A stretch of DNA of 62,086 nt, the filler included. It is 8 parts of 8 records of this genome, joined end to end, with 100 filler letters (N's around TTAATTAATTAA, not from the genome) between each part and the next. Parts side by side here need not be neighbours in the genome. Positions count along the whole stretch, not along the records: positions 44,879 to 50,293 come from SRR31156797_53234; 7 more parts are not named here. One strand, given 5' to 3'. The notes below the pieces were generated by a model. The model was given only the letters and a program-made list of their open reading frames with translations, was not told the DNA's origin and made no database searches. Positions 23,692-62,086 of the stretch are shown in pieces. Numbering within the stretch: the stretch's first letter is position 1; the number at the start of each line of letters is the position of its first letter. The translations under genes and the position numbers were made by a program.

Positions 23692-23745
23692 GAGGGTCAT
23701 CCTTTGCAATCGATGTGGGTGTGATGAAGTACGTTTTCCTTAGGG

Positions 23746-26594: not shown

Positions 26595-26603
26595 TCCGAT
26601 ATC

Positions 26604-28694: not shown

Positions 28695-28824
28695 AACGAT
28701 ACCTCCTTGACTTCTCTCATCGTTCTGCAGACGAACGGCCCGCATACCCCAGTACCGTGAAATCCGCCGCGGGATGCTTGAAGCCACACCGCGGCGGTGA
28801 ACATTGACGAATTCGTAATTTAAA

Positions 28825-29802
28825 CTACTTGATACCCTTCTCCTTGAAGTACTTCTCAGCACCCGGATGCAGGGGAATGCCCATCCCGATCAAGCCTTTT
28901 TCCATCTCGATATCCTTGAACTTGTCATGGGCTTTTTTCAGCTGTGGCAGATCCGAGTATACGGCATTGATGATTTTATAGACGATCTCCGCTTCCAGGT
29001 CGGCCCGTGCACCCAGCATGGCCATCACCGATACGGTGGGAATCTCGCCGTCGTTTCCCTTGTAAGTTCCTGCCGGCACCATCTGTTTGGCATAGAAGGG
29101 ATAGCTCTTGATCAGTTTATCCACATTGTCTCCGCTGATCGGGACGATATTCACATCCACGATCAAGGAGGTGTCCATGATGACAGCGGCGCCCACCGCA
29201 ACGGTGAAAAATGCGGCATCGAGGCGTCCGTCCTTGATGTAGTCCGCCGACTGCGAAGCGGTTAACTGTTCCGCTTTTGCCAGATCTTTGACGTCCAGGC
29301 CCCAGCCTTCCAAGATCTGTTTTGCGTTTTCGGTCGTACCGGAACCGACTGGACCGATGGCAACTTTCTTCCCCTTGAGATCAGCAACGGATTTGATGTT
29401 GGAATCCTTGCGTGCCACCAGTTGGACGTGTTCGGGGAACAGGGTGCAAACACCCAGCAGGTTCTTGATGGGCTTGTCGAACATCCCCTCTTTGCCGTGA
29501 TGCGCATAGGAGGCGATATCGTTTTGCAAGATGGCGAAATCGGTATCCCCTGCACCGATCAGCTTGGCATTGGCAACGGATGCGCCTGACGATTCGGCGG
29601 TCACCTTGATCCCGTCATCTTTGAGATGTTTCCAGGCAATACGCGATATGGCTCCGGCCATGGGGAAATAGGCGCCGGTCACCCATCCGGCGGCAATGGA
29701 GACATAGCGTCGTTTAGCGGCATTGAGTGTGCCTGCCGGTAACGCCAGTGCTACAGCCAGTACGATCACCACGCTCCAGATCATCAAATGTCTTCTTCTC
29801 AT
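28825..29802 (-). CDS. TAXI-family TRAP substrate-binding protein
   Basis: Signal peptide; G..TGAYF, SGASVAN, GPVGSGT, IPLHPGAEKYF. Confidence 0.92.
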   Translation of the reverse strand: MRRRHLMIWSVVIVLAVALALPAGTLNAAKRRYVSIAAGWVTGAYFPMAGAISRIAWKHLKDDGIKVTAESSGASVANAKLIGAGDTDFAILQNDIASYAHHGKEGMFDKPIKNLLGVCTLFPEHVQLVARKDSNIKSVADLKGKKVAIGPVGSGTTENAKQILEGWGLDVKDLAKAEQLTASQSADYIKDGRLDAAFFTVAVGAAVIMDTSLIVDVNIVPISGDNVDKLIKSYPFYAKQMVPAGTYKGNDGEIPTVSVMAMLGARADLEAEIVYKIINAVYSDLPQLKKAHDKFKDIEMEKGLIGMGIPLHPGAEKYFKEKGIK

Positions 29803-29861
29803 CTCGAACCTCCTCCTTTTTATTAAGTGAATTGAGTGGATACTTTTACCGGGAGTTCTCA

Positions 29862-30169
29862 TCACCTCCTTGTTTCATGATCCGTTATCGTTGTTGACAA
29901 ATTCTCATCATGGAAAAACCCCATTGCCGATGAAATACGTTGCGCGCATTGAACCACCGCGGGAATCATGACTTGCCGCAGATAGTTCTCACCATGGCTG
30001 GCGGCATTGACTGCCATGTTCAGCGCCGCTACGGCTTCCCCCTCACGATTCAATACCGGCGCCGCGGCTGAACACAACTCCGGAGCGATTTCGCCGTAGT
30101 TCACCGCAAAACCCCTGCGGCGGACCGCTGCAAGGATCGACTCGAGTTCATCGATATCCGTTACCGTAC
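29862..30169 (-). CDS. IclR-family regulator C-terminal domain (5'-truncated)
   Basis: VRRRGFAVN.GE......SAAAPVLNREG.AVAALN effector-domain pattern. Confidence 0.8.
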
Positions 30170-43989: not shown

Positions 43990-44176
43990 ACACCAATGGT
44001 GGTAAATCAATGTCATTAACTTAACACACGGGTTGGTAACAATAATGAAACCGTCCGCTCCGATTGTTAAAATTTATATAGGTAATTGAACAGTCCCTTC
44101 ATCACATAACCTGCAAAAGATCAAGGCCCCGCATTGAAATGATCCGAGCCAGTGCCGCCCTCCCGGGGCAGGCGTC

Positions 44177-44778
44177 TTAGACAAACCGTACAATCAACCA
44201 GAAAACGAATCCGCTAGTAAGAAAAAACGGAACCAGGCAGACCAGCAAAACCCTCCCAAGGGGGGTGGGTGCAATTCCGGCGGGAGAACCCGACAGTTTA
44301 ACGGGAAGGGAATCCATCAGTACCATGGTTTTGGGGCTCTTTTCAAGATAGAGCAGATACTCTTTTTCATCATCTTCAAGCGCCTGGGTAAACCGGGTCC
44401 GGGTCGACGCTTCAATCTCTTCTCCGGATTTGGTCCGGAACCGAAACGTCATCCGGTAAACCGTAGCATCATTCACCGACACATTTGTTTCATGTTTACC
44501 GATTAATTTTCCCTGGGTCAGGAGTCCATATTTGAGAAGCTTTATCGCCTTAAATGATTTTTTCAAGGGCACCGCAATAATACAAAGCCCTACCAAGGGA
44601 AAAATAGCGGTAAAAAGCACTCCGGGTCCGAACATTTTGCGTTTCATCCCTTTTATCCGGGAATACTGCGGTTTTCCTTCGGGATATTCCACCGTGACCG
44701 TGCTATCGGGATCATGGGCATATCCCAATGAATAGGACACACCCACATGGTAAAATCCATTTTCGGCGGTAAACATGT
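44177..44778 (-). CDS. Membrane protein, DUF3592-like, 5'-truncated
   Basis: TM helices flanking a beta-rich domain (TNVSVN...YRMTFRF, LLY). Confidence 0.55.
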
Positions 44779-44878
44779 NNNNNNNNNNNNNNNNNNNNNN
44801 NNNNNNNNNNNNNNNNNNNNNNTTAATTAATTAANNNNNNNNNNNNNNNNNNNNNNNNNNNNNNNNNNNNNNNNNNNN

Positions 44879-45006
44879 CATGTCCCAAATGTGGAAAGGG
44901 ACGTCTGATAAAGCTGTACGAACTGCTACCAGTATATGTCGATTATATTGTTCCAAACCGAAAGGAGCTTGTCTTGGATACCTCATTGACAAGGACCTTG
45001 AGCTGA
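44879..45006 (+). mobile_element. 3' end of a probable IS91-family (rolling-circle) transposase gene
   Basis: Frame from 44881 (absent from the ORF track) reads CPKCGKGRLIKLYELLPVYVDYIVPNRKELVLDTSLTRTLS*; a terminal CPxCGKG motif is recalled from IS91-family transposase C-termini. Confidence 0.55.
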
Positions 45007-45247
45007 AACAATTTGTGAAAACGAAAATGGTATCAGACCATAGCGGTGAGTTATGTCCCAAAATCGGCGACATGAAGTCTGGTCCTTCAGTTTCTTAAAA
45101 GGCAATAGAGATGCAACAAGAAAAGCTTAAAACTACAATCATGTTTCATGAGAATCACATCTATTTTTTCTTGCACACTCAAACAGTAAACGATATAAAT
45201 CACATAGTAAAAACATTCACATCCGGCCTTGATCAGCGGCATTGTTC
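45007..45247 (+). mobile_element. Putative right (oriIS) non-coding end of the IS91-like element
   Basis: Follows the tnp stop, contains AAATCACATAG and ends AGCGGCATT|GTTC; GTTC is a known IS91/IS1294 target tetranucleotide adjacent to oriIS. Confidence 0.45.
45171..45199 (+). promoter_or_regulatory. Sigma70-like promoter facing the cassette-like gene
   Basis: TTGCAC-N17-TATAAA. Confidence 0.4.
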
Positions 45248-45375
45248 AACAACGTTATTATCAATAATCCCGCTCGCCGGAGCAACAGCTTCAGCAGTAA
45301 CGAAGATTTTTGGTGAATCGAATGGTCTCTATCTTTTGGTAGGCGGGACTATTGATAAAACGCTTTTGGTTAGGA
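45244..45375 (+). other. attC-like integron recombination site
   Basis: GTTCAAC (RYYYAAC) ... GTTAGGA ends; arms CGTTATTATCAATAATCCCGC / GCGGGACTATTGATAAAACG pair with one extrahelical base and one mismatch; 132 bp. Confidence 0.65.
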
Positions 45376-45396
45376 TTAAATGATTGAAGGTATGCG

Positions 45397-46023
45397 ATGC
45401 CTTGGGAATATCTATTAGGAAGTGCGGCAACTGGTGCAGGTACTGTAATTGCGCTTGCTCTTGTGTTCTGGAAAAAGCTTGTTGACCGTACTGTGGACTC
45501 CGCTTTTGAGACGAGACTGGAAAAGCTTAGATCAGAGTTATCGGATAAGCTGGAAGTATCCAAGTCTGAATTGTCTGTTTGGGCTCAGCTTAGAAACGAC
45601 GTCTTGTCAGAAATATGGGCCGCACACCGAAAAATTACTTCTCAAATGTCAAACGTGATATTGAAGGCACAAGAGATCATTTCAAAACAAGTTGATCCTT
45701 ATGTAGAAGTGAATTATCCCCTGCAATCACTCGAACATGAATTCAAGCCTATAGTAGAGGAGTATCGTTATACGATACACAGTGAATATCACGTCATCAA
45801 CCCAATCGTCATTAATAACATCTGCCAGAAATTTCTACTCAAGTCCTATGAACTGTACACAAAAGATTCAGTAGATTATGAATTCATCCTTAAAGTTATA
45901 AATGACCTAAAAGGCATACGTAATGAATTTCAGAGATATTCAGTTAAGTATTTTGGCTTAGAGAAAATGATGCCTTGGATGGTATCAGATAACCCTAATG
46001 GCGAGCAGTCTCTCAACAAATGA
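45397..46023 (+). CDS. Hypothetical protein (N-terminal TM plus coiled coil), cassette-like
   Basis: 208-aa ORF starting 21 nt after the attC-like site, GAAGG RBS, lower GC than the neighbouring PTS genes. Confidence 0.7.
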   Translation: MPWEYLLGSAATGAGTVIALALVFWKKLVDRTVDSAFETRLEKLRSELSDKLEVSKSELSVWAQLRNDVLSEIWAAHRKITSQMSNVILKAQEIISKQVDPYVEVNYPLQSLEHEFKPIVEEYRYTIHSEYHVINPIVINNICQKFLLKSYELYTKDSVDYEFILKVINDLKGIRNEFQRYSVKYFGLEKMMPWMVSDNPNGEQSLNK

Positions 46024-46051
46024 AGGATTAGTAACCGTGCTGAGGCACGAG

Positions 46052-46120
46052 GTGCGACCGGCATAATTGTGAACTAGCTGGTGTAAGGCCAGCCATAGCC
46101 CCTGAAAGGAGGGAATGATA
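46052..46120 (+). mobile_element. 5' fragment of a group II (class C-like) intron
   Basis: Starts GTGCG (GUGYG): GTGCGACCGGCATAATTGTGAACTAGCTGGTGTAAGGCCAGCC, with a GCTGG-TGTAAGG-CCAGC hairpin; 2 nt after a CGTGC-TGAG-GCACG stem-loop; no RT ORF or domain V follows. Confidence 0.6.
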
Positions 46121-46414
46121 ATATAAAGAATTTTATTACAAATTCGTATTGGAAAAAAAGTAAGGGTAAACTCAAAAAATAAAAGCGGTTTGAATTCCTT
46201 TTTTTTTACTTGCCTTTACTCATTCGTCGTGATAGTAAAATAGTTAATATTTTCTGTTGCGACTTGGCACGAAAAATACTATTCGCAGAACATGAACTGA
46301 TAGCTTCAACTCAATATATTTTTATCCTGCACTTCCCTGAGTTATTTCCAATGTGACGTTGCTGGAAGCCAAATTTAGTATTCAATTACCTTCATTCATA
46401 AAAGGAATAGAAAC

Positions 46415-48940
46415 ATGGATAAAGTCATTGTCAAAGCCCCGCTTTCTGGCGTGATATATCCCATTGAGCAGGTTCCTGATCCCGTGTTCTCACAGAAAAT
46501 GGTTGGTGACGGAATCTCGATTGATCCTATCAATAATACCCTGGTGGCTCCCTTTGCCGGCAGGGTATCTCAATTGCACAGCGCCTGTCATGCGATTACC
46601 ATCACCCACGCTCTAGGTTTGGAGGTAATGATGCATATAGGCATTGATACAGTCGCATTGAAAGGCAAAGGTTTCACTGTTCATGTCGAGGAGGGGCAAG
46701 AAGTTGTCCTGGGTGATGAACTCATTTCATTTGACATTGATCTTATTTCGACAAGCGCCAAGAGTCTGTTGACTCAAGTGATCCTGACAAACGGCGAGCT
46801 CGTAGCTGGAGTTGATAAGACAACCGGGAAAGCAGAATTCGGTATAACCGATCTTATGACGGTCAACCTCCAGGCAGAGGCAAGTAATCTGAAAGAGGAG
46901 CCCGGCTTGGAGTTTATATCAGAGGCATTGGTCATTCCCAACACGACCGGTCTCCATGCTCGCCCTGCCGCAGTGCTTGCCGGTTTAGCGAAGAAGTTCG
47001 ATTCTAAAGTCCAGTTGATAAAAGGCGATGAAAGCGCGAATGCCAAGTCTGTCGTTGGCATCATGAAACTGAATGTCGCCCATCTCGACAAAATCCGTTT
47101 AAAGGCTGTGGGAAGCGATGCTGAAGCAGCAATAACAGAAATTTTGCCTCAGATAGCAAGTGGTCTCGGAGATGAGGGAACAACCCCGGTTTCAGCTCCG
47201 GCATCCATTGAAGTCAATGATGATCAGGCGTTGCTTTCAGGCCCGAAAAGTGGAGACCCGGATCTTCTACTCGGTATTGCTGCCGCACCTGGAATCGCCG
47301 TTGGCAAAGCAGTGCGGATTCGTGAAGAGGTTTTTGAATTTGAAGAGGAAGCAGGGGACGCTCATCGCGAGAACGTTCGACTTGACGAGGCAATAGAAGA
47401 GGCCAAGAATTATCTTGAGGCGCTGCAGATAAACTTGCACCAACAGTCGGATGCCGTCAAAGCAGCAATTTTTGCGGCCCACCGGGAGATATTGGATGAC
47501 CCGGATCTGCTTGATATCGCCAGAAGTCTGACGGCTAAAGGGAAAAGTGCAGAGTATGCTTGGCAGAACGCCTATGTTACCTATGCAGACCAATTGGCCG
47601 TTTTGCAAAATGAAATCCTTGCTGGACGGGCTAATGATCTACGCGATGTAGGAAAACGGGTTCTTAGAATACTGACCGGTAAGGAGCCAGGGGAATTGCA
47701 GCTGCCAGCTGAGACAATACTCATTTCAGAGGAACTTACGCCTTCGTTCACCGCCACCATAGATACGAAAAGGGTCAAGGGTTTCTGTACCACAACCGGC
47801 GGGGCGACGTCCCATGTGGCCATCCTTGCACGATCGTTGGATTTAGCCGCGGTTGCCGGGATCGAGGCTGCTGCGCTTGATATAGAAGATGGGACCCCGC
47901 TTATTATAGACGGAGACAAAGGCAAACTAAGAATTAATCCATCGAAAGAACGAATACGCAAAACTCTTGAAGAACAAGCGGCAATATTAGAGCAAAAGGA
48001 AAAGGACCTTGCTGCAGCGGGTGAACCTGCGGTAACCACCGACGGTAAAAAAATGGAAGTCGTCGCCAATATCGGAGGACTTAAAGAAGCCCAGGAATCA
48101 ATAAGATTAGGTGGTGAGGGGGTAGGCTTACTCCGCTCGGAATTCCTGTTTCTCAAAAGATTCGTCGCGCCAACCGAAGAAGAACAGTACCAGGTATACC
48201 GGGATATCCTTTTGGCACTTGAAGGACACCCATTGATTGTCAGAACTTTGGACGTAGGGGGTGACAAGCCGCTTTCCTATCTCCCTATGCCGGTTGAAGA
48301 CAACCCTTTTTTGGGCCAAAGAGGTATTCGTATTGGTCTGGAGCGGCCCGAAATATTCCGGGTTCAAGCCCGGGCAATCCTTCGTGCCGGGGCACATGGA
48401 AAGATTCGCATTATGTTTCCGATGATTGCAAAGATTCAGGAACTTCGCGATGCCTTGGCAATGCTTGAAAAAGAGAGAGAAAAACTTGGTGTCGAGCCGA
48501 TTGAAGTGGGGATCATGGTTGAGGTTCCTTCTACTGCCGTAATGGCAGAACAGTTTGCTAAAGAGGTTGATTTCTTCTCAGTTGGCACCAACGACCTGAC
48601 ACAGTATTGCCTCGCAATGGATCGGGGTCACCCTAAACTTGCAGCTAAAGTAGATGGAATGGATCCGGCGGTACTCAGGTTGATCCGGCATGCGGCTGAA
48701 GGAGCACACGATCAGGGCAAGTGGATAGGAATCTGCGGCGGTCTTGCTTCCGATCCCACCGCAGTACCGGTGCTTATAGGCCTTGGTGTCGATGAACTTT
48801 CGGTGTCTGTGCCGGTCCTGCCTTCCATCAAGGCAGAAGTTCGGAAATGGTCGGTAAAGGATTGTCAGAAATTGGCAGAAGATGTCCTGCATTGTGCCTC
48901 TAGTTCCGATGTTCGAGAATTGGTAGGAAAATTGAGGTAA
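46415..48940 (+). CDS. ptsP: Multiphosphoryl transfer protein, EIIA(Glc)-HPr-EI fusion
   Basis: VPDPVFS/HIGIDTV (EIIA), GLHARPA/NAKS (HPr), [32 protein letters not shown] (EI). Confidence 0.93.
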
Positions 48941-48944
48941 AGTC

Positions 48945-50293
48945 ATGGTAAACAAGATCTGGAGTCAAGGATTCGCATTTCTGCAAAAAATTGGAAAATC
49001 ACTTATGCTGCCGGTGGCCATTTTACCGGCAGCCGGTATTCTGCTTGGTGTCGGCAGCGCTAATTTTGCTATATTTCCTGATGTCGTCAATTCCATGATG
49101 GCTGCTGCCGGTGGTGCAATTTTCGGTAATCTTGCCCTTCTTTTTGCAATTGGTGTTGCCCTAGGATTGGCCAAAAATGACGGTGTATCTGCTTTGTCCG
49201 CTGCTGTGGGATATGCGGTGATGGTTGCGACAATGGGGGTAACTGCCAGTTTGCTGGGGCTTGAAACACGCTCTGTTATTGGAATAGACTCCATTGATAC
49301 CGGCGTGTTCGGCGGAATATTGGTCGGTGGTCTGGCAGCCTTCCTGTTTAATAAATATTATCGGATTTCTTTACCAACTTATCTCGGTTTTTTTGCAGGT
49401 AAGCGCTTTGTACCTATAGCCACGTCGTTCGGCGCAATAGTGCTTGGCATCATGCTCAGTTTCATCTGGCCACCAATCCAAAATGGTATTGACGCTTTTT
49501 CAGAATTTGCCTCAACCAGCAATACGACTCTGGCTGTAGGCATCTATGGATTTGTGGAAAGACTGCTGATTCCTTTCGGCCTGCATCACATATGGAATGT
49601 TCCTTTTTTCTTTGAGCTAGGTAGCTATACGACTGCTGATGGAGAGGTGGTGCGGGGAGTATTGAATCGTTTCTTTGCAGGAGATCGTCAGGCTGGAATT
49701 TTAGCGGGTGGCTTCGTATTCAAAATGTTCGGCCTGCCTGCTGCCGCTCTTGCCATTTATCACACGGCAAAACCTGAAAACAAAGTAAAAACGGCTAGCA
49801 TAATGCTTTCTGCGGCTCTTACGTCTTTTCTGACAGGTATTACTGAACCCCTAGAATTTACCTTTATGTTCCTGGCACCGCTACTCTATCTTTTCCATGC
49901 TGTTTTGGTATCTTTTGCATTTGTTGTCACTTATCTGTTGGATATACGAATGGGATATTCTTTTTCCCATGGGTTGATTGACTATCTCCTCTTTTATGCC
50001 ATCAACATCAAACCATGGATGATGTTAATCCTGGGACCGATTTTTGGCGTCGTCTACTATGGTGTATTCCGATTAGCAATTACCGGGATGGACTTAAAGA
50101 CACCTGGTAGGGAAGACACTGAGACTGATATGGATGAGGCACGAAATATAGTGGCGGATACCATGGCGAAACAGCTGGTGCTTGCCTTTGGCGGCCGGTC
50201 AAATATAGTAAGTCTGGATGCCTGTATTACCCGACTGCGTGTTGAGGTGAACGACATCTCCAAGGCCAGTCCCGAGAAATTAAAAGCTCTCGG
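48945..50293 (+). CDS. ptsG: PTS glucose-family EIICB, 3'-truncated
   Basis: [42 protein letters not shown] linker, LDACITRLR (EIIB Cys). Confidence 0.88.
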
Positions 50294-50393: not shown

Positions 50394-50705
50394 TACCATT
50401 ACAAAGTTTTTAATTTGTGGAGCAATATTTTTTCCACTCATTGAGTTACTTTGCTGTTTTGGTGCAGCTGGTTTTTTTACAATTGTTTGAATAGTATCAA
50501 GTCCAAGAAGTTTTAACTCTTTTTCAATATCATTTTTTAAAGTCTCTTCTACTTCTGGGGCACTTGATGTGATCTCAAGATCAATAATTACATCATTTCC
50601 ATTTAATTCAATATTTTTAACAAATCCAAAATCAACAATTGATTTTGTAAATCCAGGGTAGGTTACAGATTTTAATTTGAGTTCTATATCAGTAACTGTT
50701 GCCAT
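50394..50705 (-). CDS. Mrp/ApbC Fe-S carrier ATPase, N-terminal part (3'-truncated)
   Basis: YPGFTKSIV.FGFVK domain and KNIAPQIKNFVMV immediately before the expected P-loop. Confidence 0.85.
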
Positions 50706-50810
50706 ATTTTATCCTTTTTATTAATTATAATGGGGATTCTAACTAATAAAGATAAATTTAGTCTTAATTAAAATTTGATTTCTAAAGTTTTAAGCAGGAG
50801 TGTTTAGAAT

Positions 50811-51878
50811 TTACTTTTTACAAGCTTTTCTTGGCTCAAAATCAAATACAAAACATGCTATAAGTGCATTGTTTTTATGCATATGACGAGCTGTGAAATA
50901 TGCTGAGATATAAATAGATGATATAGCTAGAAATGAAGCAAATGATAAGGTACTAAAGCCACTAAGACCTTGACCTACAGTACATCCAACTGCTAAGATA
51001 CCACCAATTCCCATACATGCTCCACCGATTAGTTTTTTAAACAGACTTGGTGGATTTTGTTGTGAGTTATCACACATCTGTTTTTTTGAGTATTGTTTAT
51101 TAAACTTTGAAGAGATAAATGATCCAGCGATCACTCCAAAGACTGTTACTACACCAAAATGAAGGTGAGAGAAGTGAAAAAAGCTAAAGATATATTCTCC
51201 AATTTTCCCTAAAGGATAGACAAATGAAAGACTTTGTGCTGAGATAGTTAAGAAAAAGTCATTAGCATATACTGTTGTAACATACCAAGTTACTGCTACT
51301 AAAAGTCCTATCATCACCCCATCTAAGACTTGAAAAAAGTTCATACAATTAATCAGAGCTTTATATAAAAGATAAAGCAATATCGGAGCTACAATATATA
51401 GAGGTATCTCAAAAACTTTTCCAGCCATAGTACTTTTTATAAGTTCATTAGAATAGATAGCATTATAGTTACTAGAGATAAAAGTATATGTAAGATAAGA
51501 AAATATCCCAAGTGCGGTGAGAATAAAAAATGAATCTTTTTCCCCTTGAGCAAACTTCACAAGATGACGTGAACTACATCCATCACTGATCATCATCCCA
51601 TATCCAAAAAGTGCACCACCAAGGATAATAAAGATATAGTTGATATTCATATAATATCGTGTGGTAGTGAAGTTTACATCGTAAAAATATCCAATAGCTT
51701 GAGTAGCAAAAAGTGCTGTAGTGATAGCTACGATAAGAGATGCTGTTCTTCTACTGTGTTTAAAAAGGATGAGATCTTTGATACTCCCACTAAAACAAAA
51801 CTGTTTTCTTTGTGCAATGTATCCGTAACTAAGACCTATAAGTAAAGCAATAAGAGAAAATAGGTTTGCTTCACTCAT
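50811..51878 (-). CDS. YeeE/YedE family sulfur-compound transporter
   Basis: Multi-TM; conserved FCF, GCSS and GCTVG cysteines. Confidence 0.88.
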   Translation of the reverse strand: MSEANLFSLIALLIGLSYGYIAQRKQFCFSGSIKDLILFKHSRRTASLIVAITTALFATQAIGYFYDVNFTTTRYYMNINYIFIILGGALFGYGMMISDGCSSRHLVKFAQGEKDSFFILTALGIFSYLTYTFISSNYNAIYSNELIKSTMAGKVFEIPLYIVAPILLYLLYKALINCMNFFQVLDGVMIGLLVAVTWYVTTVYANDFFLTISAQSLSFVYPLGKIGEYIFSFFHFSHLHFGVVTVFGVIAGSFISSKFNKQYSKKQMCDNSQQNPPSLFKKLIGGACMGIGGILAVGCTVGQGLSGFSTLSFASFLAISSIYISAYFTARHMHKNNALIACFVFDFEPRKACKK

Positions 51879-51908
51879 ATATAGGTCTCCTTAATTTTAT
51901 AATATATA

Positions 51909-53258
<1,350 letters not shown>

Positions 53259-53399
53259 TTACTCCACATAATAAACTATTTTACCATATATTTTAAATCG
53301 GATAAAAATTACCTGATTTAAATTTTTTTGATTATATCTAAGTTTTATTTACTTTTTCTTAGATGGTTTATTTACTCTATTTAGATAATAGATAGTATG

Positions 53400-53624
53400 T
53401 CAAATCTCTACACCATCCCAAAATTCATCAAAGTCTAGATTGGTCATACCATTATCTGTTTCTAGTTTTTGTGCTGCCATTAATTTTTCTTGTTCATTCT
53501 CAAAATACTGTTTTAGAGCTTCGTTTAAGATAGTGTTGGTATCTTTATTTAATAGGGCTGAGTAAGTATGTATATCTTCGATCATTTCTGAACTTAATTG
53601 AAACTGTAGATTATTTTCTTCCAT
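53400..53624 (-). CDS. Small hypothetical protein, possibly ribbon-helix-helix
   Basis: 74 aa; strand-helix-helix pattern with ILNEALKQYF; acidic FDEFWDG tail. Confidence 0.6.
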   Translation of the reverse strand: MEENNLQFQLSSEMIEDIHTYSALLNKDTNTILNEALKQYFENEQEKLMAAQKLETDNGMTNLDFDEFWDGVEI

Positions 53625-53670
53625 AAAAGCGATTATATCATATTAAGATTAATTGCTTATACTTCTTTCC

Positions 53671-54786
53671 ATGAGAGTTTATATATTTATGACCGTTTTT
53701 AGTCTAGTTTTTATTTTGCTTAATTTGTATATTTCAAAACGATTTATAGCAAAACTACATGTAAGTGAGAAGTTAAAAAACTATTTTAATATTTTTTTAG
53801 TGATCAATTTCTTTGGAATTTTGGGATATGTGTTTACAAGATACAATCCTGATATGCCAGAACTCCTTTATTTTTTATTTTCAATCCCTATTGGTATAGT
53901 ATTTTTACTTTTTTGTACAGCTCTTGTCTATGATATCTCAAGGATTGTTATAAATAAAGTGCCGCTACAACCTCAAAGAAGAGATTTTTTTAAAAAGAGT
54001 TTAGATTATGGTGCTTTAGGGGTAGGGTTTCTTTTAAGTGCGAGAGCTTTGTATGAAGCACGACATCTTGTAATAGAAGATGTGGATATAAAGCTTAAAA
54101 ATTTGAGCCGATCATATAATATTGTACAGCTTAGTGATATCCATATAGGTGGGCTTATAAATGAAACATATATAGCAAATATGGTTGAAAAAGTAAATGC
54201 TTTAAAGCCTGATCTTGTAGTGATCACGGGTGATCTTATCGATATAAAAATAGAAAATGCAAAAGGTGCATTAAATGAGCTTAAAAAACTCAATTCAACT
54301 TATGGAACCTATTTTATTGTTGGGAACCATGAATATTTTCACGGGCTTGAAGAGATCATAGATACAGTAAATGGTTTAGGGATACAAGTATTAGAGAATG
54401 AAAATCTTTATATAGGTGAAAAAGGGCAAGGGTTTAATTTAGCTGGAGTGTATGATTGGTTTGGATATAGAGCTGATAAGTTTAAGCCTGATATTGATAA
54501 GGCTCTTGAAAATAAAGATGAAAACTCACCTACTATTCTTTTAGCGCATCAGCCAAGATATATAGCTGAAGTAAAAAGTGGCGTTGATCTTATGCTTAGT
54601 GGTCATACTCATGGTGGGCAGTTGTATCCCTTTAGAGCTCTTGTAAAGTTAGTACAACCTTATATTAGTGGACTCCATCAACATAATGAGGAGTTGCAGA
54701 TCTATATCAATAGAGGCTCAGGGTTTTGGGGCCCACCTATGAGACTTGGAAGTATGGCCGAGATTACCAATATTACTATTAGTTAG
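53671..54786 (+). CDS. Membrane-anchored metallophosphoesterase (YkuE-like)
   Basis: SDIH, TGDLID, GNHE, AHQP, SGHTHGGQ motifs. Confidence 0.92.
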   Translation: MRVYIFMTVFSLVFILLNLYISKRFIAKLHVSEKLKNYFNIFLVINFFGILGYVFTRYNPDMPELLYFLFSIPIGIVFLLFCTALVYDISRIVINKVPLQPQRRDFFKKSLDYGALGVGFLLSARALYEARHLVIEDVDIKLKNLSRSYNIVQLSDIHIGGLINETYIANMVEKVNALKPDLVVITGDLIDIKIENAKGALNELKKLNSTYGTYFIVGNHEYFHGLEEIIDTVNGLGIQVLENENLYIGEKGQGFNLAGVYDWFGYRADKFKPDIDKALENKDENSPTILLAHQPRYIAEVKSGVDLMLSGHTHGGQLYPFRALVKLVQPYISGLHQHNEELQIYINRGSGFWGPPMRLGSMAEITNITIS

Positions 54787-55939
54787 GCTCTGAATAGCTT
54801 TTCATTATAAAAAATGAAATAAGTGAGAGTAGAGTTACACTTAGAGCAATTGGTAAAAAGGTATCATTATGAAAACTAAGAGCAAAAGATGAGATAATAG
54901 CTCCTAATCCAAACTGTAAAACCCCTGCAACACTAGAAGCTACTCCTGCATTTTTTGGAAAATACTCTAAGGCTAAAGTAAGACCATTTCCAAAGATAAA
55001 AGCCATCATACTCATATAACTTCCCATAATGATCATTGTAGTAATAATACCAAGATGTTCATAGTTTATGATAAATAAGACACCTGATAAGATCTGGATA
55101 ATAAGTGCAATTTGAATAAGAGCTACTGTAGTATATTTTTTTAAAAGTATGATATTGAGTCGTGTCATGATAATTAAAAGGATAAAGTTAAAGCCAAAGA
55201 AAAATGGAAAATAATCGGTAGAAATTTTAAAATATTCAATAAAGATAAATGAAGACTTTGCAATAAAGATAAAAAATCCTGAAAAACTAAGACTTAAAAC
55301 CAACATAGCTCGTACAGCCATTTTATTTGAAAGCACTAATTTAAAAGACTCTTTTATAGTTTGTTTTGAATAAGTAAAGCTTTCCTCTAATCCTTTATAT
55401 ACCCAAAAAGCCACAATTAGAGCATATAGAGTTAAAAAGATAAAAACTGCTTTCCATGAATAAAAATGGATGATAAATGCTCCAATCGCTGGAGCAGCCA
55501 TTGGAGCAATAGCTCTTATTGTTCCAAGAAGTGAAAATACTTTTGCCGCTTCTTGTCCATGAAATCTATCTCTTATAGCTGCTGTTGCATTAACAACTAC
55601 AATCCCTCCAAAAAAAGCCTCAATAAATCTATAGACCCAAAGTTCATAGATATGGTTGCTAAAAATAATTAAAAAACTAAAAAGAGCAAATCCTAAAAGT
55701 CCTAAGATGGAGCTTTTTCTTCTCCCTAGTTTATCTGAAAGAGGCCCACCAAAGATCTGTCCAATAGAAAATCCTATTAGAAAAATAGATAAAGAAAGCT
55801 CAACTTTTTCTATACTTACACCTAGATCAGTTGCAATATTTGGAATAGAGGGTAAATAGGTATCTATAGCCATAGGAGCCACAGAGGATAAAACAGCTAA
55901 GATAATTACTAAATAGATATGGTTTGTAGTTTTTTGCAT
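54779..55939 (-). CDS. MFS multidrug efflux transporter, Bcr/CflA family
   Basis: IDTYLPS, GPLSDKLGRR, APAIG; about 12 TM helices. Confidence 0.9.
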   Translation of the reverse strand: MQKTTNHIYLVIILAVLSSVAPMAIDTYLPSIPNIATDLGVSIEKVELSLSIFLIGFSIGQIFGGPLSDKLGRRKSSILGLLGFALFSFLIIFSNHIYELWVYRFIEAFFGGIVVVNATAAIRDRFHGQEAAKVFSLLGTIRAIAPMAAPAIGAFIIHFYSWKAVFIFLTLYALIVAFWVYKGLEESFTYSKQTIKESFKLVLSNKMAVRAMLVLSLSFSGFFIFIAKSSFIFIEYFKISTDYFPFFFGFNFILLIIMTRLNIILLKKYTTVALIQIALIIQILSGVLFIINYEHLGIITTMIIMGSYMSMMAFIFGNGLTLALEYFPKNAGVASSVAGVLQFGLGAIISSFALSFHNDTFLPIALSVTLLSLISFFIMKSYSEPN

Positions 55940-55997
55940 TGAAAATCGTTTTGTAAAATTGGTAAAGGTTATAGATAGAAGTAAAAGTATCTAAAAT

Positions 55998-56026
55998 AAA
56001 AAAAGATGTGGAAATTCCACATCTTT
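55998..56026 (-). terminator. Rho-independent terminator downstream of ahpC
   Basis: AAAGATGTGGA-AAT-TCCACATCTTT stem with a T-tract on the minus strand. Confidence 0.75.
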
Positions 56027-56058
56027 ATAAAAAATTTGACTAAATATTAAAATTTATA

Positions 56059-56165
56059 TTATAGTTTTTCAGCGTTTTTCTCTAAGTATGCAGCAACACC
56101 TTCAGTTGAAGCAGTCATACCCTCATCACCTTTAGTCCATCCTGCAGGACAAACTTCACCATGCT
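56059..56165 (-). CDS. ahpC: Peroxiredoxin C-terminus (5'-truncated; absent from the ORF track)
   Basis: HGEVCPAGWTKGDEGMTASTEGVAAYLEKNAEKL*. Confidence 0.9.
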
Positions 56166-56265: not shown

Positions 56266-56818
56266 GATGGATTCTGTAACAAGATTTGCAATGGCACAAA
56301 GAGAGATAGGACTAAGCACTGGTGAACCACCAACACAAAGGGGATATCCCCCATCTGTTTTTGCACTTTTACCTCAATTAATGGAGCGAGCAGGTTCCAA
56401 TGAAAAAGGGACAATCACCGCATTTTTTACAGTATTAGTTGATGGAGATGATATGAGTGATCCAATTGCAGATCAAAGTAGATCGATTCTTGATGGGCAT
56501 ATAGTGTTAACAAGAAAATTAACAGAAGAGGGGTTTTATCCACCTATTGATTTATTGCAAAGTGCCTCAAGGGTAATTGATAAAGTTATACCAGTTGAAC
56601 AATATAATAGATTTTTAAAGTTAAAAAGGGTATTATCACTAATAAATGAAAATGAGGTACTTTTAAGAATTGGTGCGTACAAGAAAGGGATGGATCGAGA
56701 ACTTGATGATGCACTGCTCCGAAAAGATAAGATACGTAAGTTTCTCTCCCAAGGGGTCAATGAGATAAGTATGTATGATGAAACGGTCAAAAGGCTGATG
56801 GAGGTGACCAATGATTGA
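56266..56818 (+). CDS. fliI: Flagellar export ATPase C-terminal part
   Basis: MDSVTRFAMAQREIGL..GEPP..RGYPPSVF, TVLVDGDD, RSILDGHIVL. Confidence 0.93.
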
Positions 56819-58337
56819 TATGAGTAGTAATATGATGTACCATTTAGGTAATTTAAATAGTGAAAGTACACGAATAAGTTATCAAATGTCCACAGGAAAG
56901 AATCAGGAAAAAGGGAGTGAAGACTCATTACTTTACAATAATATACTTCAAATTGAAAATAAATTACGCGTTACAGAAAATCTAGAACTTCAACTTGCAA
57001 AATCAAATGTAATGAATGATGCAGCTGATACAAGTATGTCAGGTATGAAAGATGCTCTTGATGCAATCAAAGTTGATATAATGAAAGGTTTAAATGATGG
57101 AATGGATAGAAATGATCGTTTAGCTTTGGCAACTAACTTAGATGGAATTAGAGAAACAATGTTTGACTTAATGAATGTTGAGGTTGATGGAGAGTATGTA
57201 TTTGCTGGGTCTGATACAACTGTACAAACTATCTCAAAAGATTCAGATTATAAAGATAATGGTAAAATTGAATTCAATGGAGATGCATTTTTAAGAAAAA
57301 TTGCTGTACAACCTGGTAGTTATAGAGATAGAGGTGCAACAGGGTACGATATTGGTTTTTATACAGCAAGTTCTGCAAAAAGTACAGAAAGATTATATGT
57401 CTCCGATAATGAAAGAGTGATAGATAGTGAGGGTTATGAGTGGAAACTATCTGAAGATAGACTGAAACTTCAAAGGTATGATCATAATGGTGATATTTTT
57501 CATCCACCTGTAGAAATAGGAGTAAGAAATACAGAAGCAGAATCTTTTACAGTTGACCTTGGGGTTGGAAGTAATGTTGATGCCACTGGTGATTTTAGTG
57601 TAAATGTGGATGGAGTAAACTATACTTACACTGCAACAGGAGATGATGCAGCAACAATTTATGCAAGTTTACAAGCAGATTTAACCGCTGCTGGATATAC
57701 TGTTTCCTCTTTAACAGGTGATAATTTTACAATTTCTATGTTAAATACTGATATAGAGGTAAATGTAACAGATCAAAATCTTTCTACATCAACAATTGAT
57801 ACTAATACAAATTATAGTATGACTATTACTAATGAAGAAGAGGCTTCCGCTGAAGAACAAGCTATCCATGGAAGTGTTTATGCTACAATTCCAAATCAAA
57901 TAACAACATCTACAGGTGAAGTTATTGAGTTGACACATATGAGATTTGAATCTAAACATAATTATTTTGATGATATTAATATGATTATTAATGCTCTAGA
58001 AGGTTATTCAACAAAGCTAGATGGAACAAAAGGGTATGAGATGACTGATGATGCTGTCGATGAATCTTTACGAACAGGTTTAGGACAAACTTCAAGTCAA
58101 TTTGATGCAACGAATATAGGACATGGAGAACTTGGTGGAAGAAATAGTATCTTTGAGCAGTCATATGAAAAGATACAAGCTCAAATTACCCATTATGAGA
58201 TTTTAATGCAAGAAACAAATGGAGCTGATCTAGCAAAACTTGCTATGGAATCAAAAGCTTTAGAATTGACATATTCATCTTTATATTCAACAATTGCAAA
58301 GATGAATCAAATGTCTTTAGTTAATTATATTAATTAA
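56811..58337 (+). CDS. flgL: Flagellin-family hook-associated protein (FlgL-like)
   Basis: QMSTGK N-terminus, G.YVFAGS, C-terminal ADLAK...L..S......MSLVNY. Confidence 0.75.
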   Translation: MIDMSSNMMYHLGNLNSESTRISYQMSTGKNQEKGSEDSLLYNNILQIENKLRVTENLELQLAKSNVMNDAADTSMSGMKDALDAIKVDIMKGLNDGMDRNDRLALATNLDGIRETMFDLMNVEVDGEYVFAGSDTTVQTISKDSDYKDNGKIEFNGDAFLRKIAVQPGSYRDRGATGYDIGFYTASSAKSTERLYVSDNERVIDSEGYEWKLSEDRLKLQRYDHNGDIFHPPVEIGVRNTEAESFTVDLGVGSNVDATGDFSVNVDGVNYTYTATGDDAATIYASLQADLTAAGYTVSSLTGDNFTISMLNTDIEVNVTDQNLSTSTIDTNTNYSMTITNEEEASAEEQAIHGSVYATIPNQITTSTGEVIELTHMRFESKHNYFDDINMIINALEGYSTKLDGTKGYEMTDDAVDESLRTGLGQTSSQFDATNIGHGELGGRNSIFEQSYEKIQAQITHYEILMQETNGADLAKLAMESKALELTYSSLYSTIAKMNQMSLVNYIN

Positions 58338-58355
58338 AAGGTATTTTAAAATAAT

Positions 58356-60479
58356 ATGAATGTAAGAGAGCTGTTTTTTAAAAAAGAATATGTTCTTATT
58401 GCGTTCATATTTTCTATGCTTGCAATTATTGTTGTCCCTTTACCAAAAGGGATGTTGGATTTCTTTTTAATCCTTTCTTTAACATCAGCAATTTTAATTC
58501 TTTTAATTGCTTTATTTATCCAAAAACCAACAGATCTTTCAACTTTTCCAACTTTACTTTTGATCTTGGTACTCTTTAGACTTTCACTTAATATAGCTAC
58601 AACTCGATCTATTTTAAGTGAAGGTCATAATGGGCCAGATGCAGTAAGTTCTATTATTACTGCTTTTGGGGAGTTTGTTGTTGGTGGGAATATGGTAATT
58701 GGTGTGATCATCTTTATTATCCTAGTACTTATTAATTTTATGGTTGTAACTAAAGGGGCTGGAAGGGTTGCTGAGGTTCAAGCAAGGTTCTCCCTTGATT
58801 CATTACCAGGTAAGCAGATGGCAATTGATGCTGATTTGAATGCTGGATTTATTGATGATCAACAGGCGAAAAAAAGAAGAGAAGAACTTGCTAGTGAAGT
58901 GAGTTTTTACGGTACTATGGATGGTTCTGCAAAGTTTGTTAAAGGTGATGCTGTTGCTGGTATTATTATTACACTTGTAAACCTTATAGGTGGATTGATG
59001 ATAGGGATCTTTCAGCATGATTTAACCGCAGCTGAGAGTTCGGAGATATATACTATCTTAACTATTGGAGATGGACTAGTTGCTCAAATACCTGCTCTTA
59101 TTATTTCTACTGCAACAGCTATTATTATTACCCGTTCAAATACTGATGAAGAAAAGTTTGCTAGTGGTACTATTAGTCAATTAGTTAATGATAGTAAAAC
59201 ATTAATTATCACAGGAATAGCATTATTCCTTTTTGCTTTTGTTCCAGGATTTCCTACTGGAATTTTACTTTTTATGGGATTATTATTATCAGCAACTGGA
59301 TATATTGTTTATATGATTGATCAGGATCAAGACAATGCATTTACACGCTTTGTTAAAGGTGAAAAAGTTGTAGATAAGATAGCAGTTGAAAAACAAAAAA
59401 GAGATGAAGAAAGAGCAAAAAAACAACAAAATACAGCTTTAACAGAAGAGCAAACAATTGATAAAACGATGAAGCTTGAAGTACTTGAACTTAAACTTGG
59501 AGCTCAGCTTTTAAGACTTGTTCAAGATAATAATGAGCTTCTTGATAAAATTAAAGGGATTCGAAATAAGATTGCAGGGGAGCTTGGATTTGTTATCCCT
59601 CAAATTAGAATTAGTGATGATACAACTTTACAGATGAATGAATATAGTTTTAACCTTAAAAGAATTCCAATAGCTAAAGGAAATGTGGAACTTAGTAAAG
59701 TATTAGCTATGGGTGGAATTGCAGGAGCAAAGCTTAAAGGGAAAAAAGTAAAAGAACCTGTTTTTGGTCTTGAAGCTACATGGATTGATCCTGAGCAAAA
59801 AGATGAAGCACTCAATCGTGGATTTACAGTAGTTGATGCACCAACAATTATTTCTACTCATCTTTCTGAACTGATTAAAAAACACGCTGAAGATATTATT
59901 ACAAGACAAGACTTGGTGGATATTATTGATAGATTAAAAGAGGATTTCCCAATTATTATTGAAGAAGCTATGAAAGTAACGACTTATGGATCACTCCTTA
60001 AAGTGTGTAAAGATCTTTTACATGAAGGGATACCACTTGTTGATATGATCACAATATTAGAATCTGTATCAGATATTGCTGAACTTACAAAATCTCCTGA
60101 TATCCTTTTAGAACATGTCAGATCAAAGCTTTTTAGACTGATTACTAATAAATATACAGCAGCTGATGGAGCAATACATATTATCACCATACGATCAGAT
60201 CTTGAGCAAGACTTTATAGGAAAATTGCAAGAACAGCATGGTGTAAGTCAGTTAATGCTTAGTATTGGAGAGATCAATAATCTTGTAACTAAAACAAGAG
60301 ACCTTTTAAATCAAATTGAAGCCAAAGGGATTGCTCCAGTTGCTATGATCGTTGATCCAAGCCTTAGAAGAAGAGTATCAGAGATTTTTGAAAAATTTGG
60401 TTTACAGATTGCTGTTTTAAGTCATGCTGAACTTGATGCAAAAGCTGAATTTACTATAGAGGGTACATTAGAGTTTTAA
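58356..60479 (+). CDS. flhA: Flagellar export gate protein
   Basis: FRLSLNIATTR, VVTKGAGRVAEV.ARFSLD.LPGKQMAIDADL, FVKGDA, GDGLV.QIP. Confidence 0.97.
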   Translation: MNVRELFFKKEYVLIAFIFSMLAIIVVPLPKGMLDFFLILSLTSAILILLIALFIQKPTDLSTFPTLLLILVLFRLSLNIATTRSILSEGHNGPDAVSSIITAFGEFVVGGNMVIGVIIFIILVLINFMVVTKGAGRVAEVQARFSLDSLPGKQMAIDADLNAGFIDDQQAKKRREELASEVSFYGTMDGSAKFVKGDAVAGIIITLVNLIGGLMIGIFQHDLTAAESSEIYTILTIGDGLVAQIPALIISTATAIIITRSNTDEEKFASGTISQLVNDSKTLIITGIALFLFAFVPGFPTGILLFMGLLLSATGYIVYMIDQDQDNAFTRFVKGEKVVDKIAVEKQKRDEERAKKQQNTALTEEQTIDKTMKLEVLELKLGAQLLRLVQDNNELLDKIKGIRNKIAGELGFVIPQIRISDDTTLQMNEYSFNLKRIPIAKGNVELSKVLAMGGIAGAKLKGKKVKEPVFGLEATWIDPEQKDEALNRGFTVVDAPTIISTHLSELIKKHAEDIITRQDLVDIIDRLKEDFPIIIEEAMKVTTYGSLLKVCKDLLHEGIPLVDMITILESVSDIAELTKSPDILLEHVRSKLFRLITNKYTAADGAIHIITIRSDLEQDFIGKLQEQHGVSQLMLSIGEINNLVTKTRDLLNQIEAKGIAPVAMIVDPSLRRRVSEIFEKFGLQIAVLSHAELDAKAEFTIEGTLEF

Positions 60480-60525
60480 GTCCCCTTTGGATAAAATATC
60501 GAAATTTTAATCAAAAGGACTAAAT

Positions 60526-60792
60526 ATGAATGGTGACTTAATTGGATCTTTACTTCCACTTATTGTACTTTTTGCAATATTTTATTTTTTAATCATAAGA
60601 CCACAACAAAAACAACAAAAAGAGCACAAAGCGATGCTTGAAGCACTTGATAAAGGTGATAAGATCGTAACAAACGGTGGATTAATTGTTGAGATTACAA
60701 AAGTTGAGGGAAACTTTTTAACAGTAAAAAGTGTCGATGATTCAACACTTAGAGTTGCAAAAAACTATGTTGCAAGCAAATGGGAAGAGTAA
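60526..60792 (+). CDS. yajC: Preprotein translocase subunit
   Basis: FYFLIIRPQQK, L.KGDKIVT.GG. Confidence 0.95.
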   Translation: MNGDLIGSLLPLIVLFAIFYFLIIRPQQKQQKEHKAMLEALDKGDKIVTNGGLIVEITKVEGNFLTVKSVDDSTLRVAKNYVASKWEE

Positions 60793-60808
60793 TAGCTAAA
60801 GGAATACT

Positions 60809-62086
60809 TTGCATATTTTTAACTATAGACTAGTAATATTTTTACTAGTAACAGTTTTTGGGATAATCTTTTCTGTGCCATCTTTTTTACAAACTGAAGA
60901 TGGGAAAAAAATCTCTTTAGGACTTGACCTTCAAGGTGGACTTCATATGCTTTTAGGAGTAGAAACTCCAAAAGCAGTTGAAGGAAAAATCAAATCAATC
61001 GCAGCTACAATCAAATACTATACAGATAAAGAATCAATACTTATTGAAGATCTTCTTGTAAAAAAAGATCATGTGAGTTTTGTTCTTCTTGACCCTGATG
61101 AGCAACAAAAACTTGATACGATGATATCTGAAATCAAAGGGTTAAATATAAAAAAAGAGCACGAGCTTTCTTATTATATTGAATTAACTCAAGAAGAGAT
61201 AGAAGTTGTCAAAGATATGGCAGTAACACAAGCAGTTGAGACTATAAGAAATAGACTTGATCAGTTTGGTTTAGCTGAGCCTTCCGTTACAAGACAAGGT
61301 GAGACGGATATTGTTGTAGAACTTCCAGGAATTAAAACTCCAGAAGAGGAACAGCGCGCAAGATCATTGATTGCAAAGCCTGCAAACCTTGAACTTATGG
61401 CAGTAGATGAGACAAAATCTGATCAAGTATATGAGTTAACAAATGAGCAAGCTTTAGCTGGGGGTAATATTATCTTAGAAGAGTCAGGAAATCCTCAAGT
61501 TAAATATTTGGTAAAACAGATCCCTATTTTAACTGGATCAGAGGTAAGTGATGCAAGAGTAGCTTTTGATCAGCAAACGAATCAACCTGTGATCAATTTT
61601 ACTTTAAGTACTTTTGGTGCTAAAGTATTTGGTGACTTTACAGCAAAGAATATCGGTAAAAGATTAGCAGTTGTTTTAGATGGAAAAGTATTTTCTGCTC
61701 CATCAATACGGGAACGAATTGGTGGTGGAAGTGGACAGATTAGTGGAAACTTTAGTGTAGAAGAAGCTGGGAATGTTGCTATTGCCTTGCGTTCAGGAGC
61801 ACTCCCTGCACCAATTATTGTATTAGAAAAAAGAAGTGTGGGACCTAGTCTTGGAGCCGATAGTATCGAAGCTTCTATTATTGCCCTTGTTTCGGGGTTT
61901 GTTTTAGTTGTAATATTTATGATCGTTTATTATGGGATAGGTGGGATTGTTGCAAATATTGCACTTATTACTAATATCTTTATTATTATTGCTGTGATGG
62001 CTATGTTTGGAGCTACCTTAACACTTCCAGGTATGGCAGGTATAGTTCTAACTGTGGGTATGGCAGTTGATGCCAATGTAATTATT
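60809..62086 (+). CDS. secD: Protein translocase subunit SecD, 3'-truncated (absent from the ORF track)
   Basis: TTG start after AAAGGA; LGLDLQGG, IRNRLDQFGLAEP, VGPSLG, TLTLPGMAG, GMAVDANV. Confidence 0.95.
   Translation, partial: MHIFNYRLVIFLLVTVFGIIFSVPSFLQTEDGKKISLGLDLQGGLHMLLGVETPKAVEGKIKSIAATIKYYTDKESILIEDLLVKKDHVSFVLLDPDEQQKLDTMISEIKGLNIKKEHELSYYIELTQEEIEVVKDMAVTQAVETIRNRLDQFGLAEPSVTRQGETDIVVELPGIKTPEEEQRARSLIAKPANLELMAVDETKSDQVYELTNEQALAGGNIILEESGNPQVKYLVKQIPILTGSEVSDARVAFDQQTNQPVINFTLSTFGAKVFGDFTAKNIGKRLAVVLDGKVFSAPSIRERIGGGSGQISGNFSVEEAGNVAIALRSGALPAPIIVLEKRSVGPSLGADSIEASIIALVSGFVLVVIFMIVYYGIGGIVANIALITNIFIIIAVMAMFGATLTLPGMAGIVLTVGMAVDANVII

Follow-up and report, generated by a model that had tools for sequence, protein, structure and literature searches.

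Remnants of two IS91-type elements and a group II intron around a likely former integron cassette

Two kinds of attC parasite are already known, group IIC-attC introns and IS1111-attC elements. The IS1111-attC group of the IS110 family comprises specific invaders of cassette attC sites (PMC9229058), and group IIC-attC introns such as S.ma.I2 insert in the bottom strand, opposite to cassette transcription (PMC3001079). Insertion sequences (ISs) of the IS91 family carry one or two imperfect subterminal palindromes at their ori end, next to which lies a target tetranucleotide, CTTG, GTTC or GTCC, that is not duplicated (PMC13181058). One IS91-like element, ISShvi3, has been noted in a Shewanella integron as lying "adjacent to an attC site" (PMC9229058). 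Beyond this passing remark, no description of an attC target rule for IS91-type elements was found in the literature outside subscription journals and ISfinder/TnPedia. Here, a stretch of 62,086 nucleotides (nt), called the window below, is analysed around an orphan gene encoding 208 residues. The gene lies between the right end of an IS91-family element, labelled IS-A (44881-45368), and the stump of a second IS91-type element, labelled IS-B and inverted relative to IS-A, which is itself broken by the start of a group II intron. The region is probably layered mobile-element debris around one former integron cassette.

The locus itself holds remnants only: one complete-looking ori end, one putative cassette gene, a 34-nt IS stump and a 65-nt intron stump. 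Its value lies in what its relatives reveal, namely a target rule for IS-B and the recurrence of the intron in IS hairpins. The features that bear on this reading are as follows.

44879-50293: contig carrying all features of interest; it begins right after an artificial linker.
44881..45006, plus strand: end of the IS-A transposase gene (41 codons and stop), truncated where the contig begins; 71% identity to protein P0012.
45007..45368, plus strand: non-coding right (ori) end of IS-A, holding a subterminal palindrome of about 130 bp (about 45244-45368).
45369..45372, plus strand: GTTA, a target-type tetranucleotide abutting the IS-A ori end; GTT and a variable base in other copies.
45397..46023, plus strand: the 208-residue orphan gene; N-terminal hydrophobic helix, helical bundle and conserved C-terminal FGLEKMMPWM in the product.
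46011..46017, plus strand: TCTCAAC, an R''-box-like heptamer and the IS-B insertion point; aligns with TCCTAAC of metagenome contig L080.
46018..46051, minus strand: outermost 34 nt of the IS-B ori palindrome, antisense to the gene, recognised by alignment to intact copies.
46052..46116, plus strand: first 65 nt of a group II intron (GTGCGACCGGCAT...), starting GTGCG, truncated.

Evidence on IS-B comes from copies in other genomes. A 23-nt IS-B motif is present in 34 of 151 sampled Desulfobacteraceae genomes, and its reversed control in 0 of 151. The copies share a sharp outer boundary, ...AAC followed by AAAT, and a full palindrome of about 59 nt; among decayed copies the inner boundary varies (truncations after CCTT, GGTT or GCCGCGG) and the outer one stays fixed at AAC. 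At locus L123 of genome G075 the palindrome is followed by a conserved block whose opposite strand encodes a 361-residue IS91 transposase (356.5 bits; Y2_Tnp 3e-55, Zn_Tnp_IS91 1.4e-25), together with a 291-residue tyrosine recombinase. This is the same gene pair as in relatives of IS-A, the transposases of the two types being 34% identical. The element is 2398 nt long, with shortened forms of 84-1923 nt. At its ter end, ..GCGGCTTACTTG, the next bases are AAC and a body in 20 distinct flanks, which cover every copy with a located far end; among them, L135 probably reflects a spurious ter match. As read from the printed flanks, about 17 of these bodies are palindromic and end in GTT, and they fall into several types.

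The same bodies lie behind small same-strand open reading frames (ORFs; HicA/HicB-like and others) near genes for the integron integrase IntI, and are for this reason taken to be attC sites. The two commonest types occur 12 and 16 times in the fetched loci, with an IS-B end in front of 5 and 3 of them, respectively. Decisive is an exact empty site: the joined flanks of the copy at L125 agree at 207 of 209 positions with a site in L123 that is not interrupted, and the join falls right after CACAAC. Position within genomes agrees with this picture. In G075, IS-B copies at 2366298-2435006 and 3076041/3082466 stand to the right of IntI genes at 2358238 and 3035682, and 8 of the 13 copies lie no more than 80 kb downstream of an IntI gene in array orientation; in G031, copies at 852620-854312 stand to the left of IntI at 892586. 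Statistical support is modest, the median fold z of whole flanks being near -2 for IS-B versus about -0.9 for IS-A. These comparisons give IS-B one exact position in the integron arrays of Desulfobacteraceae, directly behind the AAC of R'', the first conserved attC box, in attC sites of diverse kinds.

Several further observations concern this group of elements. Derivatives of IS-B with both ends and no genes, measuring 84, 178, 260, 268, 520, 1126 and 1923 nt, were seen at L120, L121, L132, L134 and L144, where they sit in attC-like sites as the full 2398-nt element does. A third family of IS91-type ori palindromes, reading AAC, then GAATAAGGATAGATCGTG..CACGATCTTATCC..GTTGAAC, has a sharp outer boundary at L146-L157 and is present in 2-7 copies per genome in five genomes. 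L123 also carries four genes for a 446-residue group II intron reverse transcriptase/maturase on the minus strand (3849-5189, 5780-7120, 15097-16437 and 18417-19757), no more than 20 kb from the G075 integron integrase; the intron is a different one, and the array invaded is the same.

In the window, the sequence from 46018 matches intact IS-B copies up to GGCACGAG, and 46014-46052 matches a second place in a Desulfobacula genome. A small hairpin, CGTGC-TGAG-GCACG, follows TCTCAAC, and the palindrome is interrupted after ...GCACGAG by nt 1-65 of the intron. Other contigs of run X1 carry the same 38 nt and then CTCGGTGCTAATCCTTGGTTCAAGAAG, the right arm and interior of IS-B; intact copies thus probably exist in the same sample. 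A preliminary description of this DNA had seen here a second AAC-initiated arm with an apical hairpin and had read it as half of an attC site. The arm and hairpin are present, but they are the terminal palindrome of a second IS91-type element, and of the cassette's own site only the heptamer TCTCAAC is left.

That this heptamer belonged to the gene is suggested by L080, which carries the gene at 90% identity and lacks IS-A. BLAST homology between L080 and the window covers 45372-45999, and the alignment continues past the BLAST end on to GTCTC(T/C)(C/T)AAC. In L080 the TCCTAAC is followed by AGTGCAAATCAAGCCGACGCC...GACGTTCAAC, an AAC...GTT palindrome of classical attC appearance. Relative to L080, the original stop of the 208-residue ORF is gone (45998-46023); translation runs on across the R''-like box, gaining about 8 residues, to a TGA (46021-46023) supplied by the first bases of IS-B, within the stump. 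By this alignment, and by the position of IS-B copies directly behind the AAC of attC sites, TCTCAAC is probably the sole remnant of the cassette's own attC.

The gene itself, which the preliminary description had reported as an orphan with a 21-nt leader, stands as described: it occupies 45397-46023, and 21 nt separate GTTAGGA (45369-45375) from its ATG. Nine relatives of the protein were found at E <= 0.01 in a near-length search of a collection of 5.8 billion proteins; in alignment they share an MPWEY start, the hydrophobic N-terminal helix and FGLEKMMPWM near the end. A genome scan with the single protein returned nothing, and an alignment-based scan returned one locus. The family is cassette-borne in Geothrix limicola. 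At L079 of that species a relative of the gene lies between GCCTAAC...GTTAGGC attC sites at 3125-3249 and 3959-4082, within an array where at least 10 of these sites follow one another at intervals of 425-834 bp, and the genome encodes an integron integrase (463.8 bits). A naive scan for RYYYAAC...GTTRRRY proved noisy and strand-blind, and was useful only for Geothrix. On this evidence, the 208-residue gene is likely a former integron cassette.

The protein has no Pfam or NCBIfam match and no credible PADLOC match. Its AlphaFold model (predicted local distance difference test score 72.5) is an all-helical bundle, for which Foldseek against PDB returned generic helical bundles only (best E = 0.069, none at E <= 0.001). 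We tentatively suggest a helical protein that is anchored in the membrane and has an accessory role, of the sort often encoded by cassettes. In runs X2-X4, from soil and plastisphere metagenomes, short contigs of 151-262 nt cover parts of 45412-45806 with 1-4 differences, and near-identical copies of this rare gene therefore occur elsewhere; these runs hold small shares only, in the form of repeated palindromes and such contigs. At L082 the relative of the gene is flanked by direct copies of a repeat of about 75 nt (about 4810-4890 and 5640-5720), which contains a perfect GTAGAGGCAC...GTGCCTCTAC hairpin that is not of the AAC...GTT type.

The segment that starts GTGCG had been recognised earlier as intron-like, and its relatives bear this out. 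Positions 46049-46116 are 88% identical to a Desulfobacula locus (G002), and 15 of 151 genomes contain the first 160 nt of the intron, with at most four copies per genome. In alignment, divergence among the copies sets in exactly 5' of GTG(C/T)(G/A)ACCGGCATGG. Downstream, the relatives match RF02001 with 67-80 bits (6 loci) and RF00029 (2 loci), and they contain ORFs with RVT_1 and GIIM domains. The 46052-46116 segment is identified by these homologies as the 5' end of a multicopy group II intron. It comprises nt 1-65 only and holds no ribozyme core or ORF; run X4 includes a contig with further intron sequence past 46116. Neither 44000-47000 nor the loci with gene relatives yielded an intron, attC or riboswitch match in Rfam e-value scans; the intron piece of this locus stops short of the region covered by RF02001.

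The places where this intron lands also have a pattern. Copies at L096 and L098 stand directly after perfect hairpins, a habit of class C introns. Of the 11 distinct intron sites for which a flank is available, 4 occupy the loop of an IS91-type ori palindrome, and in each the intron begins after ...GAG. These are the present locus, where the palindrome is of the IS-B type, and L087/L085/L088, L089 and L095, which share a second palindrome type whose intact form was recovered.

The left element is identified by its protein and by its end. The frame from 44881 reads CPKCGKGRLIKLYELLPVYVDYIVPNRKELVLDTSLTRTLS (41 residues, stop at 45004-45006) and closes with the CPKCGKG noted in the preliminary description; it is the C-terminus of an IS91-family transposase. 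The tail alone has no Pfam match. Compared with longer proteins it has two matches, one being P0012, a protein of 412 residues with Zn_Tnp_IS91 (PF14319) and Y2_Tnp (PF04986) domains that scores 412.5 bits on the NCBIfam IS91 transposase model NF033538 (cut-off 125). Scanning genomes with P0012 brought up 98 relatives; 78 loci, mostly from Desulfobacterales, were retained. These relatives have a left (ter) end, GTTGAACAAAACCGC, with a small palindrome, which differs from the ori end, and they carry a gene for a 292-residue tyrosine recombinase upstream of the transposase; the recombinase reaches 148 bits on an integron-integrase model, below the cut-off of 265. By the homology and gene content of its relatives, IS-A probably belongs to an IS91 subgroup with a tyrosine-recombinase gene upstream of an HUH/Y2 rolling-circle transposase.

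GTTCAAC (45244-45250) and GTTAGGA bracket the imperfect palindrome of 132 bp that had been taken for an attC site. The palindrome is real. Its arms, 45258-45273 and 45343-45358, are 16 nt long and 94% complementary, and as single-stranded DNA it folds with z = -2.75 on the plus and -2.84 on the minus strand, with 3 and 2 of 200 shuffles folding as well. R-box-like heptamers alone are within chance expectation, and the palindrome and repeats are beyond it. The attC identity did not hold. When 44879-46400 was compared by BLASTN with the 78 loci, five copies aligned over 44879-45371/45372 at 66-71% identity with the whole palindrome included, and some twenty further loci matched the right arm (45342-45371) at 82-93%. 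With the ends printed in register, both arms recur in dozens of copies, as TGTTCAACAACGTT..ATCAATAATCCCGC and GCGGGAC.ATTGATAAAACGCT.TT.GTT, and from the base after GTT onward the flanking sequences are unrelated. Since both arms are conserved with the element and the flanks diverge after GTT(N), the palindrome of 130 bp is assigned to IS-A as its own subterminal ori palindrome, and the element ends at 45368. The segment 45244-45375 is thus conserved with an IS91-type transposase in other genomes, and it is absent from the IS-free allele L080, whose homology to the window starts at 45372, where IS-A and its tetranucleotide end. The GTTA lies 24 nt upstream of the 208-residue gene. Absence of a target duplication was established for IS-B only.

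All five features listed in the preliminary description lie where it placed them, two of them misassigned. It had further proposed that an IS91-like element uses attC sites as targets, naming the left element and asking whether attC arms recur at the right flanks of its other copies. A habit of this kind is found for the right element, IS-B, in its array copies and empty site, but not for IS-A, whose close relatives show no attC-like flanks. An exact empty site, a kind of allele it had suggested seeking, exists for IS-B (L125 versus L123), and L080 is an allele of the gene free of IS-A.

Related ends of the IS-A type show other arrangements. In Desulfobacter curvatus (L001, 5593-5739) the right arm of such a palindrome occurs three times in tandem (5593-5621, 5681-5709 and 5714-5739), each ending GGTT. 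At L005 (about 2664-2720) and L058 (2969-3060) an ori end directly abuts a ter end (GTTGAAC...), an arrangement to be read as a head-to-tail tandem or as the junction that a circular intermediate would have. Over 44879-45371, run X1 also yields another IS-A variant, which carries 30 differences and has about one fifth of the depth, and one contig whose palindrome is missing its central 70 nt, 45281 being joined to 45352. The palindrome arms in this run are covered 10-17 times as deeply as the flank, indicating many related ends in the sample.

These results suggest an order of events. IS-B would have inserted into the attC of the cassette, 5' of the bottom-strand GTT of R'', which would match the insertion of IS91-family elements next to GTTN. 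The intron would then have reverse-spliced into the loop of the IS-B hairpin, and a deletion may have removed the rest of the intron, of IS-B and of the attC body. IS-A would have inserted independently upstream of the gene.

A number of points weigh against this account. Neither an attC body nor an integron integrase is found in the 62,086-nt window, so that cassette status here rests on the relatives of the gene and on the target habit of IS-B. A gene followed by its own attC is represented at this locus by TCTCAAC only; the palindrome is clear in L079, and in L080 the one downstream folds no better than shuffles (z = 0.05 and 0.10). An array beside an integron integrase is found in the genome of the Geothrix relative. 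Among six loci with relatives of the gene, L079 is the one with an evident attC array; L080 has no attC upstream, and the other four show no clear array. The ungapped arm test gave p < 0.05 for 7 of 20 IS-B flanks versus 2 of 27 IS-A controls, and is a weak test, attC stems being bulged. A test for AAC..GTT closure in the minimum free energy (MFE) structure was passed by 1 of 20 IS-B flanks, and is unsuitable in that a 3-bp closure never appears in the MFE structure. For the intron, a search beyond its end in L089 (a full-length copy), L095 and L085 did not recover the palindrome's right arm, and simple insertion into a hairpin is a tentative reading. The contig that bridges all junctions comes from run X1, possibly the source of the assembly itself, and is hence not independent.

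A more far-reaching reading, which we hold tentatively and consider somewhat unlikely, is a three-level nested parasitism on integrons, with IS91-type elements on attC, an intron on the IS hairpin and this locus as a fossil of all three layers. IS91-type elements with an IntI-like recombinase would home to the R'' box of attC, and their ori end, built of AAC, stem and GTT, would mimic attC. In a circular IS-B the junction would be CTTGAAC...GTTCAAG, two boxes of perfect complementarity. A lineage of group II introns would home into the loop of the mimic hairpin, and the attC-directed step might be the work of the recombinase and not of the HUH transposase.

Whether IS-A too landed on a cassette boundary, namely the R' box (G|TTAGGA) of the upstream attC, so that both cassette ends were hit by IS91-type elements, is more doubtful still. 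GTTAGGA fits GTTRRRY at 6 of 7 positions, is complementary to the TCTCAAC of the cassette at 5 of 7, precedes the ATG by a typical cassette leader length of 21 nt, and marks the start of homology with L080. Yet L080 reads GCCAGGA at the same place, and the left flank of IS-A lies outside the data, no other part of the element being found elsewhere in the window. The ter flanks of its closest relatives have no hairpin signal (z = -0.24, -0.07, 0.54, -2.4 and 2.62 for L001, L002, L004, L006 and L012), one of the two IS-A flanks that reached p < 0.05 in the arm test is a tandem IS, and the IS-B-type palindrome motif occurs in none of the 78 IS-A-type loci.

It is improbable that the gene is merely an orphan chromosomal gene amid unrelated mobile debris, with the AAC serving as an ordinary GTTN target of an IS91-type element. 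The lack of an attC body or IntI in the window would suit this explanation, as would the four or five of six loci with gene relatives that show no clear array, and GTTN is a frequent tetranucleotide. Against it, every IS-B copy with a located far end has an AAC-initiated body there, and several of these body types are also seen uninterrupted within arrays; in L080 an attC-like palindrome starts at the aligned position and resembles the sequence of the IS-B target at L131; and the Geothrix relative lies inside an array.

The 59-nt palindrome was at first read as a genuine Desulfobacteraceae attC, a reading dropped in view of the IS91 transposase behind it, the AAC-body ter flanks and the empty site. 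In its stronger form, in which the palindrome represents an attC family proper, with the unit of recombinase and transposase as cassette cargo, this explanation is very improbable: the length of about 59 nt, the AAC/GTT bounds, the enrichment in arrays beside IntI and the array orientation all fit, but the empty-site comparison makes the palindrome part of a 2398-nt insert, its inner boundary varies and its outer one is fixed at AAC, and the same palindrome precedes different attC bodies. Least probable of all is the original proposal of an integrase-less cassette with an attC site in each palindrome, where an IS91-like element struck the left site and a group IIC intron the right one. The gene is indeed flanked by AAC...GTT-bounded palindromes, and its family is cassette-borne elsewhere. 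But other genomes preserve the left palindrome together with a transposase gene, with variation in its flanks starting only past GTT(N), the right arm in most other copies precedes a conserved block and an IS91 transposase gene, and the right-hand palindrome is absent from the exact empty site.

The setting of the former cassette is given by the remaining features.

44779..44878, no strand: artificial linker of 44 N, TTAATTAATTAA and 44 N, one of seven identical.
46117..46200, no strand: 84 A+T-rich nt between the intron fragment and the core genome.
46201..48940, plus strand: core genome outside the mobile debris, comprising an upstream region and a fused phosphotransferase system (PTS) EIIA-HPr-EI gene (46415-48940), identified by Pfam.

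The window consists of eight contigs joined by these seven 100-nt linkers. Because a linker precedes 44879, the ORF tail at 44881 is an ORF cut by the contig end and not a gene truncated in the genome. On the right, relative G066 is 96% identical over 46201-49300; its sequence to the left of 46201 is unrelated, and nothing of the block 44879-46200 was found in it. The A+T-rich piece had no meaningful match in any fetched locus. A tblastn search of the rest of the window gave no integrase, IS91 transposase or reverse transcriptase, in line with the earlier statement that no integrase is visible, and a distant-mode search of PLSDB plasmids gave no match. G+C content ranges from 0.33 to 0.56 among the eight contigs, being highest at 22200-30169 (0.56) and lowest at 50394-56165 and 56266-62086 (0.33); the latter two may come from another replicon or organism.

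Compared with described systems, the locus resembles a cluster of attC sites lacking integrases (CALIN), or a single attC without integrase, in having a cassette-type gene away from a visible integrase, as the term is used in PMC9229058 and PMC7923331; it differs from these in having the first box of an attC only, and no complete site. The intron fragment is like the group IIC-attC introns described in PMC3001079 in being tied to the cassette end, between the gene and the rest of the recombination site, and its relatives at L096 and L098 insert right after hairpins as those introns do. It differs in lying on the sense strand of the cassette and not on the bottom strand, and inside an IS91-type hairpin, not an attC. 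ISShvi3, compared by its description in PMC9229058, is a single case with no target rule, unlike IS-B, and the authors report there that they found no IS interrupting attC. Ori palindromes of about 60-130 nt, built of AAC, stem and GTT, resemble attC and can be miscalled as such in annotation. IS1111-attC elements belong to the DEDD transposase family. IS-B is unlike them in combining an HUH/Y2 transposase with a tyrosine recombinase. With an IS91-type family that inserts at one fixed point in attC, the known attC parasites would gain a rolling-circle member; one-ended transposition carrying neighbouring DNA is a possible route by which such an element could move parts of arrays without IntI. 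IS-A and IS-B agree with IS91, IS801, IS1294 and IS1294b in the HUH/Y2 transposase of their relatives, which has Zn_Tnp_IS91 and Y2_Tnp domains and scores above the NCBIfam IS91 cut-off. They also share with that family the distinct ter and ori ends, the subterminal ori palindrome, the GTTN-type tetranucleotide beside it and, for IS-B, the absence of target duplication. They depart from it in the additional Xer/IntI-like tyrosine-recombinase gene upstream of the transposase in their relatives, in the unusually long palindrome of IS-A (about 130 bp) and, relative to the family as described in PMC13181058, in the fixed target of IS-B inside attC sites.

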